The translations under genes were made by a program, and so were the position numbers. From the sequence record OQ067374.1: 64,000 bases of DNA. One strand, 5' to 3'. Shown piece after piece: positions 24,128-40,448 of the stretch. This DNA comes from Escherichia phage a20. The notes under the pieces were generated by a model. That model saw only the letters and a list, made by a program, of their open reading frames with translations, was not told where the DNA came from and searched no databases. Position 1 is the stretch's first letter; each line of letters begins with the position of its first letter.

Positions 24128-25114
24128 TTATTTATAGTAAGAATTATGATTTTCGAGATAGACTTGCTCAAGGAAATCATCCCAGAAACTCATATCTACT
24201 TTTTGTTGCATACCGTTCTTAGCGGCTTGTTCCGATGCTTGTTCAACTTGGTCAACGATATCTTCTAGGAATTCTTGTACAGTTTTAAACGTATGTTTAC
24301 CAAGCTTAACATCGAGAATAAATGGAGCATCCTGAAGTGGGTAAACTAAGTCGCCGGTTTTGTAAATTTCCAATAGTTGAAGTCCACCACGACATGCATG
24401 ACTCAATGCTTTCCAGTCAATACCTTCGTTGGCTTCCGCCTTACGAGCACGTTCACCGTAGTTCTCTTCCAGTTTAACCAGGATGGCATTGAACTCTTTA
24501 TTGGTTAACGTATCTTGGAATTTACGGTCTAACAGATTATAGAATGTTTGCTTACCTGTTTTCTCGTTTTCGGTTTCAACCCACGAAGCAAATTCACCTA
24601 TAGGCAGAACATTCTTCATATGTGATAAACGAATTACTGCACCATTATCAAAGTATTGTCCCCATTCATTAGAACGTTTAAGGGCTTGACGAAGAACAGC
24701 CAGTCGAGAACCCTTGACACCGTATTTAGAAGCTTGCTTACGGACATACCCTAAATAAGATTTCATGTTAGTGGTATAGAAACGAGACCTGTTATCTTGA
24801 ATATACTTCCATACATCAGGCAAATCAGATTTAACTACTAGACTTTGTGGAGTGTGAAGCATATCTAATGCGACGGTTTCACCATCTGCAGCTAGTTTAA
24901 AGAAATATTTGAGACTATATAACTCATGGTCTACGTCGTCTTTTGTGTTCTTAGAAGATGTGTTATTCGTGTTCTTGCTCATGTGTTCTTTAACGTTACC
25001 GGTCAAGATATCACGAGCATGAGGGACATAAATTTCTTTAAAATCAACGTCAGATTCAGGGGTAGACGTTCCATAAAGGTGGCTACCAAAGTAAGCCTTA
25101 ACAATCGTTTTCAT
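24128..25114 (-). CDS. Pol-beta-superfamily nucleotidyltransferase-like protein
   Basis: N-terminal FGSHLYGTSTPESDVDF fits the hG[GS]...D.[DE] NTase motif; 328 aa. Confidence 0.6.
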   Translation of the reverse strand: MKTIVKAYFGSHLYGTSTPESDVDFKEIYVPHARDILTGNVKEHMSKNTNNTSSKNTKDDVDHELYSLKYFFKLAADGETVALDMLHTPQSLVVKSDLPDVWKYIQDNRSRFYTTNMKSYLGYVRKQASKYGVKGSRLAVLRQALKRSNEWGQYFDNGAVIRLSHMKNVLPIGEFASWVETENEKTGKQTFYNLLDRKFQDTLTNKEFNAILVKLEENYGERARKAEANEGIDWKALSHACRGGLQLLEIYKTGDLVYPLQDAPFILDVKLGKHTFKTVQEFLEDIVDQVEQASEQAAKNGMQQKVDMSFWDDFLEQVYLENHNSYYK

Positions 25115-25880
25115 TATTCACTTTCCTTTCATAATCTTCAATGAACTGTAATATTAAGCGTTGGTAATTTGATTTAGGATAACCCATTTTACTAATATGG
25201 GTTCCGAAAGCCCCACGCTTAGGTCGATTCAATTTAATCCAAAGTTCGTAAAGCATATCATAATCTTCCCAGTGTTTACCAGTTCGTTGTCTAGCTTTAG
25301 ACGCTTCAGACTGTCTCTTTTTAGTTTCTGGATTATCTAGGGCCTTTTTAACAGCTCTTGAATGCCGTTCTTTAACATCATCTCTCTTAAAGGCCTCTTT
25401 GATAGCAGTAGATATTTTTGCTTTAACTTCAGGTCTATTCTGTGCCTCTATTTGAGAATCTGACATTTTAGCCTTTATCTCAGGGAGGCTCATGGTCGCT
25501 GAACGCTTATCACGATATTCTTGTGATTCCCATATATCTTTCATTCTATTAGAGTGAATTTCTGAAAACTTTTCCCTTACGTCTTTATAGCCTCTTGAGG
25601 TTAATTTAAGATTTCGTCCTAAAGCATCTTCGCCTAAATTATAGAACGCCCAGTAAGCGTAAATCAATCCTTCAGAGTTTGGGTGAATTTTTGATAATAA
25701 CCAATGAGCGATAAAATGTTCCCTGGCAGTCAATAAAACTTTATTACTCGGGTCATCACTCCCTCCAATACATGAAGGGATTATGTGATGGGATTCAGTA
25801 TAATAATTCAACTCAGACTTATCACTGCCTCTAAGTTTTCCTCGTTGAATTATTGCATCATAACATTTGATATAATTCAT
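25098..25880 (-). CDS. HNH homing endonuclease (MobD-like by position)
   Basis: SHHIIPSCIGGSDDPSNKVLLTAREHFIAH HNH motif; paralog of ORF 5661-6377; Lys/Arg-rich C-terminus. Confidence 0.8.
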   Translation of the reverse strand: MNYIKCYDAIIQRGKLRGSDKSELNYYTESHHIIPSCIGGSDDPSNKVLLTAREHFIAHWLLSKIHPNSEGLIYAYWAFYNLGEDALGRNLKLTSRGYKDVREKFSEIHSNRMKDIWESQEYRDKRSATMSLPEIKAKMSDSQIEAQNRPEVKAKISTAIKEAFKRDDVKERHSRAVKKALDNPETKKRQSEASKARQRTGKHWEDYDMLYELWIKLNRPKRGAFGTHISKMGYPKSNYQRLILQFIEDYERKVNNENDC

Positions 25881-26353
25881 TTGCCTGGCTTGTATTCAAG
25901 AGTAGGACACACTTTAGCTTTACGAGCTTTTAAAAATTCAACGATAATCGATTTCTTACGTTCAATAGGCTCAAGTCCATTTTTAATTCGTTCTTGGTTT
26001 TGTGCAATGAGCTCAATTTCTTTATAATATTTTCTGTCGTTATATTTGTCTAACAACCAAGACGGACCAATTACCAACCCGGTAGCAATAAAAGCCATGA
26101 CTGCTACCATTAAAATGCCTACACCAATTGAAGCCAGAACTAATGTCCATAGACTGCTAAAAACAAAGAATTTAGTTAAAATTTCCTGGCCAATGATTGT
26201 GACTGCTGCTAAAATCGCAAATCCAATAATTGAAGCAGCCAATACCGGGAGAAACGTTTTCCAAAAATAAGCACACAACGTTTTCGGACGATTCCATGTA
26301 CTATTGAACGCGGCATAAATTTTAAAATGCCAAGAGTTTTCATTGATAATCAT
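25877..26353 (-). CDS. Hypothetical integral membrane protein
   Basis: 158 aa with 3-4 hydrophobic helices. Confidence 0.6.
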   Translation of the reverse strand: MIINENSWHFKIYAAFNSTWNRPKTLCAYFWKTFLPVLAASIIGFAILAAVTIIGQEILTKFFVFSSLWTLVLASIGVGILMVAVMAFIATGLVIGPSWLLDKYNDRKYYKEIELIAQNQERIKNGLEPIERKKSIIVEFLKARKAKVCPTLEYKPGK

Positions 26354-26362
26354 AATAATTCC

Positions 26363-26893
26363 TTATTTCAAAGTTGGGATAATAGAATCGAGATAAGCTT
26401 TAAGAGCAACTGCTTCATCTTTGTCTAATGTAATGATATGTTGACGAAGGTCATCAATTTGGCGAATAACTACGACATCACCGTCTTCATAAGAAGGATT
26501 AACTCCCAGGACTGTTGTATAGTCAGGGCGATCCTGATTTGTAATAAAAGCATTACGGCATTTAGCCCATTGAAGTTTGGCCTTTTTGGCTGTTTCAGAT
26601 TCCATGAATTCTTTCACCTTAGTGACAAATGTTTTCCAATTATTAATAGAAAAACATTCATCTTCGGTTTCGATATTAACCCCACTATAAAGTCCGTGAT
26701 AAAAACGAACTTGAAGGTCTTCGTCAATGTTAATTACAGATGCATGACCTGGTGGATTGAGTTTCAAAATCTTGTCTAGTTCCATAGGAAGAATAGTAAC
26801 AACATCATCTTCTTGCGTCAGAACGTACGCATAACCACGTTTTTCGATACATAAATCACCAAACAACTCAGTCGTTTCAATTACAGTTTTCAT
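26363..26893 (-). CDS. Hypothetical protein
   Basis: ATG 26893 (MKTVIETTELF) preferred over TTG 26905. Confidence 0.55.
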   Translation of the reverse strand: MKTVIETTELFGDLCIEKRGYAYVLTQEDDVVTILPMELDKILKLNPPGHASVINIDEDLQVRFYHGLYSGVNIETEDECFSINNWKTFVTKVKEFMESETAKKAKLQWAKCRNAFITNQDRPDYTTVLGVNPSYEDGDVVVIRQIDDLRQHIITLDKDEAVALKAYLDSIIPTLK

Positions 26894-27158
26894 ATTATTC
26901 ACCAATTAAAGTTTCAACAAAATTCACCAAATCATTCTGACGAGCATCAACCTGATTTCTATAAAAATTAAATAAGATCCATTTCACAGGTCATTTTACC
27001 ATACTCGCTTCAATAAGATTCATTACACCATTTACCATGTTATACGTAAACATCGGATAATTGTATTGTACTACAACATAAGCGATAAGCAAAAGTTTCA
27101 TTTTGTTCTCCATTTGTTTTGGTAGGACTACTATAACATAGTCCTACCAAGTTGTAAA

Positions 27159-27365
27159 CTACCGATTGTGTTTTAAATGTTGATAAAGTTCTTCAACTTG
27201 TTTAGGGTCCAAAACAATTAAGTCATTTTCTTGACGAAGATAAATCCATCCCTTATCCCCAGGGCCATTTTTACAAAACATCGCCACCATATCATCATCT
27301 TCAGCGCTTTCAGGTAAAAGTTCAAGTACACCGTCTTCAGATTTTCCAGTATAATCGTAAAGCAT
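27159..27365 (-). CDS. Hypothetical protein
   Basis: Start at ATG 27365 (MLYDYTGK) with SD GTGAGGAT, 8 nt after upstream stop. Confidence 0.5.
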   Translation of the reverse strand: MLYDYTGKSEDGVLELLPESAEDDDMVAMFCKNGPGDKGWIYLRQENDLIVLDPKQVEELYQHLKHNR

Positions 27366-27372
27366 AATATCC

Positions 27373-27552
27373 TCACATAATCTCGTTAACATACATTTGC
27401 AATTCGGTGTGGGCATCAGCCATCTTTTTCATAGCTCTGTTAATGTCGATGTCTCCATCTTCGCAACCATGAGCATTTTCCCAATCAGATACCGCATTAG
27501 CGTACTCTTCAATCAAAAACATTAACTTAGAAATTTTTTCTTTACGTGTCAT
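27373..27552 (-). CDS. Hypothetical small protein (59 aa)
   Basis: ATG 27552 (MTRKEKISKLMFLIEEY) with SD GAGGAGAA; ORF-track TTG start lies inside the duplication. Confidence 0.5.
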   Translation of the reverse strand: MTRKEKISKLMFLIEEYANAVSDWENAHGCEDGDIDINRAMKKMADAHTELQMYVNEIM

Positions 27553-27756
27553 AACGTTCTCCTCTAGTAAGTAAGGTTTACTATAACACAACCTGAGGAG
27601 AAGTAAACTGATAGATGCCAAAAAGCCCCTACTCTTCAATCAAAAACATTAACTTAGAAATTTTTTCTTTACGTGTCATAACGTTCTCCTCTAGTAAGTA
27701 AGGTTTACTATAACACAACCTGAGGAGAAGTAAACTGATAGATGCCAAAAAGCCCC
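27503..27756. repeat. Perfect 127-bp tandem duplication (2 copies) of promoter/SD/5' gene-end/terminator-stub cassette
   Basis: 27503-27629 and 27630-27756 identical base for base on my reading; no flanking microhomology. Confidence 0.9.
27580..27608 (-). promoter_or_regulatory. T4-early-type promoter (GTTTAC-N17-TATAGT); second copy at 27707-27735
   Basis: Minus-strand GTTTACttctcctcaggttgtgtTATAGT; upstream arm TTCTCCTC complementary to downstream SD GAGGAGAA. Confidence 0.45.
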
Positions 27757-27774
27757 AACCTTTCGGAAGGGGCT
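27745..27774 (-). terminator. Rho-independent terminator downstream of rI
   Basis: Minus-strand AGCCCCUUCCGAAAGGUUGGGGCU followed by UUUUU. Confidence 0.6.
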
Positions 27775-27780
27775 AGTAAA

Positions 27781-28083
27781 TTAGATAGATGTAGGCTCTA
27801 ATTTTATTTTCATGAACTCGGCAAATTGTCTGGCAGTTTTTATGCCTTGTTCGTGACATTCAAATGCATCATCACAGGGGCTATTTTTGTAATGCTTTGC
27901 CATATACTTATAGAATTTTTCAGAATTCTCGACATTTTGAATTTCAAACAAAGTATATACGTTTTTAATCCCTGATTCCATAAAGTTATCAAAATATGGG
28001 TCGATATATGCAGTACCAACGATAGGAGTTGTTGCTGCAAAAAACCCCAGCATCGCCATGACAGCTATCGCTCTTAAGGCCAT
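27781..28083 (-). CDS. rI: Lysis inhibition regulator RI-like membrane-anchored protein
   Basis: 100 aa, MALRAIAVMAMLGFFA anchor, DPYFDNFMESGIKNVYTLFE...YKNSPCDDAFEC resembles T4 RI; position upstream of tk. Confidence 0.7.
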   Translation of the reverse strand: MALRAIAVMAMLGFFAATTPIVGTAYIDPYFDNFMESGIKNVYTLFEIQNVENSEKFYKYMAKHYKNSPCDDAFECHEQGIKTARQFAEFMKIKLEPTSI

Positions 28084-28095
28084 ATAGGCCTCCTG

Positions 28096-28308
28096 TTAAT
28101 TTTGGCCAGTATTTATTTTTCGCCTTTGGACGGCCTTAACATCTGTGAGGTATTTTTCCAGCTTGCGCTTGCGTGTATAATCAGCTTTAGAACCAGTTTG
28201 ACGGATATCCTCGTTTAAATGAGAAATAGAATGTCCTAATTCTCTTCGGATTTCATCCAATTGGGTTACAGTAAGATTACGAAGTTGTCTTTCGTTTAAT
28301 TGCTGCAT
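28096..28308 (-). CDS. Hypothetical protein
   Basis: 70-aa ORF. Confidence 0.55.
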
Positions 28309-28335
28309 ATATACCTCTTGGTTAGATATTAGTAT

Positions 28336-28917
28336 TTATAACAATCCTGTCAAATCATTCCAATGCTTCCGGCATAATGACACATATCTATCAGTATCAC
28401 CAATTTCAATTTGACTGCCATCTGTAATTGGAAGTCCGTCTTCCGTGACTCTAGCTACCATTGTGGCCTTTTTACCACAATGACAGACACCTTTAAGTTC
28501 AACAAGCTTATCGGCAATAGCCATTAATGCTTGAGAACCTTCAAATAGATTACCTTTAAAATCTGTTCGTAGTCCATATGCCATTACCGGCACATTGTAT
28601 ACGTCAACAATACGACTAAGTTGATACACCTTTTCAGTAGTTAAGAACTGAGCTTCGTCAACAAATACGCAGTGAATATCCTTTTGTGCTGCAGCCCATT
28701 TATAGAATTCAAAGATATCCATGTCTTTTGTAATTATATTGGCATCTTGACGAATACCAATACGGGAGACTATTTCACCCTTTGAATCACGAGTATCAAT
28801 AGCCGGTTTAAGAACTAATACACCCATGCCACGTTCTTTATAGTTATGTGCGGCAGTAAGTAATGAAGCAGACTTACCAGCGTTCATAGCGGCATAGGTA
28901 AAAATTAAACTAGCCAT
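28336..28917 (-). CDS. tk: Thymidine kinase
   Basis: 193 aa, P-loop AAMNAGKSASLL, FVDEAQF, zinc ribbon CHCGKKA...CRKH. Confidence 0.92.
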   Translation of the reverse strand: MASLIFTYAAMNAGKSASLLTAAHNYKERGMGVLVLKPAIDTRDSKGEIVSRIGIRQDANIITKDMDIFEFYKWAAAQKDIHCVFVDEAQFLTTEKVYQLSRIVDVYNVPVMAYGLRTDFKGNLFEGSQALMAIADKLVELKGVCHCGKKATMVARVTEDGLPITDGSQIEIGDTDRYVSLCRKHWNDLTGLL

Positions 28918-28926
28918 AAGAGTCCT

Positions 28927-29109
28927 TTATAGTGAATTCACGTAGTCAATGAGTTCTTGTTCTTTCCTGTCAAATGATTCCATCAATGCGTGATATTCTT
29001 CATCTGTTAAAGGAGCATATTCATCGTACGCATTGGTGGCTGCTTGCTCATCCAATAGGTCATGGATAAGTTCGAACAGTTTAGCTTTCTCTTCTTTAGT
29101 TAATTTCAT
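28927..29109 (-). CDS. Hypothetical acidic protein
   Basis: 60-aa ORF. Confidence 0.5.
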   Translation of the reverse strand: MKLTKEEKAKLFELIHDLLDEQAATNAYDEYAPLTDEEYHALMESFDRKEQELIDYVNSL

Positions 29110-40230: not shown

Positions 40231-40306
40231 TGGTCGAGACAGAAGGATTCTAACCTTCAACCTACGGATTAGAAGTCCGTTGCTCCATACAATTGAGCTA
40301 TGCCTC
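40231..40306 (-). tRNA. tRNA-Arg (anticodon UCU), CCA encoded
   Basis: Hand-folded cloverleaf: acceptor CGAGGCA/TGTCTCG, anticodon stem ACGGA/TCCGT, loop CTTCTAA, T-arm GAAGG-TTAGAAT-CCTTC. Confidence 0.8.
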
Positions 40307-40312
40307 GAATAT

Positions 40313-40386
40313 ATGACCCAGACCAGATTCGAACTGGTAACCTTTCCCTTATGAGGGGACTGCTGCTAACCATTGAGCTACAGGGC
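40313..40386 (-). tRNA. tRNA with anticodon CAU (Met or Ile2), CCA not encoded
   Basis: Hand-folded: T-arm ACCAG-TTCGAAT-CTGGT, anticodon loop CTCATAA, acceptor with one U-U mismatch and one G-U. Confidence 0.65.
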
Positions 40387-40448
40387 CTAAATAACTTTCT
40401 ATTATGAAAGGCACTTTAGAGCACCTTTGGTAATAGAGGGTACGAATT

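Follow-up and report, generated by a model that had tools for sequence, protein, structure and literature searches.

A perfect 127-nt tandem repeat beside rI in a T4-like phage genome is very probably an assembly artefact

T4-like phages package their DNA by a headful mechanism, whereby their genomes are circularly permuted and have no fixed ends. Such genomes thus assemble as circles and are prone to carry an overlap at the contig ends. Headful packaging and circular permutation of T4-like phages are also stated in a study on T4 amplifications (PMC9391042). An end overlap of 127 bp has been reported for SPAdes contigs of circular or circularly permuted phage genomes (PMC5923482, PMC13245101, PMC8104045). 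In one of these reports the 127-bp overlaps at the SPAdes contig ends were named “Assembly artifacts” and removed (PMC13245101), and in another the genome was “reopened” once the 127-bp terminal repeats had been removed (PMC8104045); the general principle of such end overlaps is given in the CheckV paper (PMC8116208). Tandem amplifications are documented for T4 itself, whereby the amplified units comprise whole selectable genes and their boundaries lie on microhomologies of 6–10 bp, or more broadly 2–10 bp (PMC9391042). A third described system are the promoter-early stem-loops (PeSLs) of T4-type phages, which consist of a stop codon, a stem-loop terminator, a sigma-70-like early promoter, a Shine-Dalgarno sequence (SD), and a start codon. 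The T4/PST-type PeSL promoters follow the pattern TTTACW-N17-TAYWAT, and PeSL shuffling takes place by homologous exchange between PeSLs (PMC2839356, PMC4122927), so that its products should be bounded by PeSL homology.

The window, i.e., the whole 64-kb stretch of DNA that was analyzed, is on sequence grounds assigned to a T4-like phage of the genus Mosigvirus (Tevenvirinae) and includes the tk–rI region. A 1.5-kb query around the locus described below matched 167 phage records with 95–99.7% identity, in which thymidine kinase, the rI lysis-inhibition regulator, and small hypothetical proteins are annotated. Within this region TRF found a perfect tandem repeat at 27503–27756 (period 127, 2.0 copies, 100% matches, 0% indels, score 508). 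A repeat search and a script comparing both strings likewise gave 100% identity between 27503–27629 and 27630–27756, as claimed in the original prediction. The base that precedes copy 1 is G, whereas the 127-nt unit ends with C, and the base that comes after copy 2 is A, whereas the unit begins with T (script). Since the flanking bases differ from the end bases of the unit, there are exactly 2.0 copies with zero microhomology; it had been predicted correctly that the junction shows neither microhomology nor divergence. In the whole 64-kb window this is the only exact direct repeat of at least 40 nt and the only tandem repeat with a score of at least 60. A chance origin was ruled out, as 127 identical bases have p ~4^-127. 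The features of the locus and its neighborhood are as follows:

27503..27629, minus strand: copy 1 of the 127-nt unit, of which the low-coordinate side runs on into the remainder of the 59-aa ORF
27630..27756, minus strand: copy 2 of the 127-nt unit, of which the high-coordinate side runs on into the 5' arm of the rI terminator
27610..27649, no strand: surroundings of the junction 27629/27630, ...AAAAAGCCCC / TACTCTTCAA..., with zero bases in common
27751..27774, minus strand: the sole complete rI terminator hairpin, AGCCCC-TT-CC-GAAA-GG-TT-GGGGCT (fold -16 kcal/mol, z = -2.1)
27707..27734, minus strand: early-type promoter of copy 2, TTTACT-16 nt-TATAGT, with TG upstream of the -10 (consensus scan)
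27580..27607, minus strand: the same early-type promoter in copy 1 (consensus scan)
27629..27679, minus strand: 16-codon ORF MTRKEKISKLMFLIEE plus TAG (sequence reading); the TAG (27631–27629) spans the junction
27373..27552, minus strand: intact 59-aa gene of the DUF7438 family, RB69 MobD.2a-like (PF24219, E = 1.4e-16), with SD GAGGAG at 27559–27564
27781..28083, minus strand: rI antiholin gene (PF24205 Antiholin, E = 4.4e-24), the upstream neighbor, whose terminator is clipped by the repeat
28336–28917, minus strand: tk (annotation in relatives)
28096–28308, minus strand: 70-aa gene (ORF map)
27159–27365, minus strand: DUF7189 gene (Pfam)

On the minus strand the elements follow each other, 5' to 3', in the order rI stop codon, hairpin, T-tract (27747–27751), early-type promoter, SD GAGGAG, and ATG. 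The 127-nt unit starts on this strand with GGGGCT of the hairpin 3' arm (27756) and extends to two bases into codon 17, which corresponds to 27630 in copy 2 and 27503 in copy 1. Each unit thereby contains the 3' arm GGGGCT and the T-tract of the rI terminator, the early-type promoter, the SD GAGGAG, the ATG, and 16 codons MTRKEKISKLMFLIEE plus “TA”. Sequence reading, promoter scan, and fold hence agree with the cassette of terminator stub, early promoter, SD, and 16 codons that had been described before. The breakpoints ignore functional boundaries: the repeat edge at 27756/27757 splits the 3' arm of the rI terminator hairpin, codon 17 is cut at the other end, and there is no base in common. 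At the junction, the second GGGGCT-T5 has no 5' partner, and the terminator hairpin was not formed in the fold. Copy 2 gives the 16-codon ORF ending in the junction TAG that had been predicted; this ORF is a by-product of the repeat, and a look-up found no recorded gene product that corresponds to an extended 39-aa version of it starting from TTG. The homologous elements are annotated in the record of phage SA79RD as rho-independent terminator, T4 early-like promoter, and RB69 MobD.2a-like CDS. OL960576 annotates the homologous promoter site as “similar to phage T4 early promoter”, and the rI homologue is annotated in relatives as rI or lysis inhibition regulator. For the repeat region there was no match to an Rfam family of structured RNA. 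The only Rfam/ARAGORN matches in the window are the adjacent genes for tRNA-Arg(tct) and tRNA-Met(cat) at 40231–40387 (minus strand).

The comparison with closely related phage genomes, which had been proposed as a check, was carried out with 24 distinct loci that were obtained from exact-protein look-ups or BLAST matches (GenBank, ENA, Logan). All of the relatives fetched across the site (24/24) are single-copy, with one leader and start each versus two in the window. The distance from the rI stop to the ATG amounts to 101 nt in the relatives versus 228 nt (101 + 127) in the window, and removal of either 127-nt copy gives back the sequence of the relatives. BLAST alignments of relatives against the window all break at 27629/27630, whereby the same 127 nt of the relative align to both copies. 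NRG-P0074, the annotated relative closest to the window, shows no base difference across the region and has one unit; the closest contig (L027) has 99.3–99.5% identity and is single-copy as well. The best match from the phage collection, BEU50, shows 98.6% identity over 20 kb on each side of the repeat, and look-ups of exact proteins (the 59-aa protein, the homing endonuclease, Tk, and the 176-aa protein) gave only relatives with an identity of at most 99.5%. The exact 59-aa protein occurs in 127 blocks of the assembly collection, with a single-copy leader in every contig read. In the 3.9 kb from 25200 to 29100, five runs of 21-mers are private to the window with respect to the fetched relatives; four of them reflect differences at the SNP level and one corresponds to the junction. 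A 40-nt junction probe (20 nt from each side) had no match in a phage collection of 50,697 records, where single-copy genomes cannot seed megablast with it, in the GTDB species genomes, in the JGI metagenome contigs, or in IMG/VR. A search of IMG/VR with a 32-mer from inside the unit gave no match either and was uninformative. A 40-mer of tk that is private to the window likewise had no match in IMG/VR, the JGI metagenomes, or the GTDB genomes.

We conclude, with a probability of roughly 0.93, that the 127-nt repeat is an assembly artefact of the kind of the SPAdes end overlap on circular phage contigs and does not represent a duplication in the phage. Under this reading, the length of 127, the perfect identity, the arbitrary and homology-free breakpoints, and the unique junction are all to be expected. 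The observed length corresponds to a final k of 127 and is present in exactly 2.0 copies, which are identical at 100% with 0 indels. The template is a circularly permuted genome (Mosigvirus), and the break lies at an arbitrary position, as it cuts a hairpin arm and codon 17 at sites that have no boundary homology. The original prediction had spoken of a recent event that could equally be an assembly or cloning artefact. The artefact had thus rightly been named as a possibility, whereas the equal weighting did not hold and the significance of the number 127 had been missed.

The repeat might have arisen in the following way. The T4-like, circularly permuted genome would assemble as a circle, most likely in a de Bruijn-graph assembler with k = 127 (SPAdes). 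This circle would be opened at an arbitrary vertex, whereby the respective 127-mer (U) would be written at both contig ends, yielding [U]-genome-[U]. The overlap may then have been left untrimmed when the sequence was re-opened or rotated to a conventional start. Instead of a re-opening, it could also be that graph-adjacent contigs were joined end to end or that the record was treated as circular. In each case the result would be [U][U], two identical 127-mers in direct succession at an arbitrary site.

As a positive control, four Mosigvirus records from GenBank that lack annotation (OQ031495, MT446423, PQ301181, and OM632671) were examined over 400 nt at either end, and no terminal overlap was found in them. 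The generality of the artefact is thus taken from the literature and not from an example within Mosigvirus. Two assemblies of this group are conspicuous by their length. OM632671.1 (BEU50, UNVERIFIED_ORG) has 193,190 bp, which is ~24 kb above the typical Mosigvirus size of ~168–170 kb, and ENA ERZ28564815 scaffold_4 (L017) has 336,591 bp, which is ~2x the genome length. Both are probably over-long or concatemeric assemblies and would represent other assembly artefacts in the group.

A real and very recent tandem duplication, which would have occurred in the phage stock by illegitimate recombination or replication slippage, is very unlikely. The DUF7438 gene would then be preceded by two tandem early promoters and a 16-codon upstream ORF. 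Such an arrangement is coherent at the sequence level, since the 59-aa gene is intact and the extra copy has a full promoter, SD, and start. As there is no hairpin between the copies, read-through would be possible and the duplicated segment would be viable. T4 tandem amplifications do arise under selection (PMC9391042), and real duplications without microhomology occasionally occur. However, the length would then have come out as exactly 127 by chance, for which the odds are roughly 1 in several hundred, and the junction was found in no other sequence of the four collections, while every fetched relative is single-copy. Moreover, perfect direct repeats of 127 bp would be expected to be unstable in a T4-type phage owing to T4 recombination. 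The boundaries have zero bases in common versus 2–10 bp in the documented T4 events (PMC9391042), and instead of a complete selectable gene the unit has 16 of the 59 codons. Absent microhomology, which had been taken as a sign of recency, hence counts against a real T4 duplication (PMC9391042).

Even less probable is a technical artefact of another type, such as a chimera from cloning or PCR, or an error of polishing or scaffolding that has nothing to do with k-mer overlap. The unique junction and the perfect identity would fit such events too, and cloning had been raised in the original prediction, but none of them predicts a length of exactly 127. Furthermore, such phages are normally assembled from whole-genome shotgun data. 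Two other technical readings were rejected. A window that reads across the ends of a known record does not apply, as no record of at least 99% identity ends at these coordinates, and a real fixed terminal repeat does not apply either, as T4-like headful packaging leaves no fixed ends.

A rearrangement by the PeSL of the locus itself, i.e., recombination between two PeSL copies, is scarcely credible and was rejected on the breakpoint positions: the single-copy rI/DUF7438 intergenic region does have the PeSL layout with stop codon, stem-loop, TTTACT-N16-TATAGT, SD, and ATG, and the site is polymorphic in relatives, where a 185-aa ORF is flanked by stem-loop copies, but one breakpoint of the repeat lies within the 3' arm of the stem-loop and the other 50 nt into the coding sequence, without a base in common, and no gene cargo is gained. 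Thus, it is the single-copy intergenic region which, as a plastic region with an early promoter and a stem-loop terminator, agrees with the PeSL definition (PMC2839356), while the endpoints of the 127-nt repeat do not lie in homologous flanking PeSLs.

The polymorphism at this site was found in three relatives, in which a 185-aa DUF7338 ORF is located between rI and the 59-aa DUF7438 gene (L015:5125–5870, L018:5125–5872, and L023:5125–5873, homologous to window 27552–27781). A complete stem-loop of the rI terminator is present on each side of the DUF7338 ORF, whereby the two are identical in 36/36 nt in L015. After the first stem-loop copy comes TATAAATA, a motif that resembles a T4 late promoter. 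The presence or absence of the DUF7338 ORF looks like a polymorphism by insertion or deletion of a PeSL-type cassette. As this genuine polymorphism is bounded by complete stem-loops, in contrast to the halved stem-loop of the repeat, we counted it in favor of the assembly artefact. In L018 (5137–5165), the inner part of the stem-loop upstream of the inserted ORF is flipped, with AGCCCCAACCGTAAGGAAGGGGCT versus AGCCCCTTCCGAAAGGTTGGGGCT, and the hairpin is kept; possibly, the same terminator is present here as an inverted or compensated variant.

Further observations concern the wider neighborhood. A second early-type promoter, TTTACA-17-TATAGT, is located at 27158..27130 on the minus strand (region 27121–27159). 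A perfect 10-bp inverted repeat, GGTAGGACTA / TAGTCCTACC, at 27121–27148 encloses the -10 of this promoter in its 8-nt loop, which fits a published subclass of PeSLs whose stem-loop and -10 box overlap. DUF7438 paralogues are found around tk and rI, e.g., at 27373–27552 and 28927–29109 (minus strand), with 2 to 4 copies within few kb among the relatives (L003–L024), and this varying copy number suggests ongoing gain and loss in a hyperplastic region. At 25098–25880 (minus strand), between a membrane-protein gene and a RlaP-type nucleotidyltransferase gene, there is a gene for a 260-aa homing endonuclease, which is so annotated in NRG-P0074. Only 4 contigs of a large assembly collection carry the exact protein, and most relatives lack the gene at that position; judged from these sequences, the gene probably represents a mobile insertion.

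An untrimmed overlap would mean that the genome length is overstated by 127 bp and that a second promoter, a 16-codon ORF, and a terminator fragment, all of them spurious, could spread into annotation, promoter counts, and comparative analyses. The value of the observation thus lies mainly in data quality, and the repeat should be trimmed. As a general rule, perfect repeats, whether tandem or terminal, that have the length of a common assembler k (55, 77, 99, 127, or 141) in a circular or circularly permuted genome should be presumed to be artefacts until reads disagree. A real repeat would be a modest case of promoter duplication in a T-even phage, whereby early expression of the DUF7438 small-gene cluster beside rI would possibly be raised, e.g., selected by host-defence pressure.

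Compared to the known systems, the repeat shares with the k-mer terminal overlaps (127 bp for SPAdes; 55, 77, or 99 bp with other settings) the length, the identity, the arbitrary position, the lack of boundary homology, and the origin from a circularly permuted phage. It differs from them in that the overlaps sit at the two contig ends, whereas the copies are adjacent inside the sequence here, for which one more step would have to be assumed. With the T4 amplifications (dmd-tifA under toxIN selection, rII, and gene 16-18), it has in common the head-to-tail arrangement, the T-even genome, and the inclusion of a promoter together with the beginning of an early gene. However, the T4 amplifications have larger units with whole genes, microhomology, and compensating deletions (PMC9391042), in contrast to 127 nt, no microhomology, and no complete gene in the present case. 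The PeSL cassettes (Arbiol et al., 2010; Comeau et al., 2014) share the terminator stem-loop upstream of a sigma-70-like early promoter in front of a small ORF; unlike in PeSL shuffling, the 127-nt repeat leaves the PeSL homology unused and halves the stem-loop.
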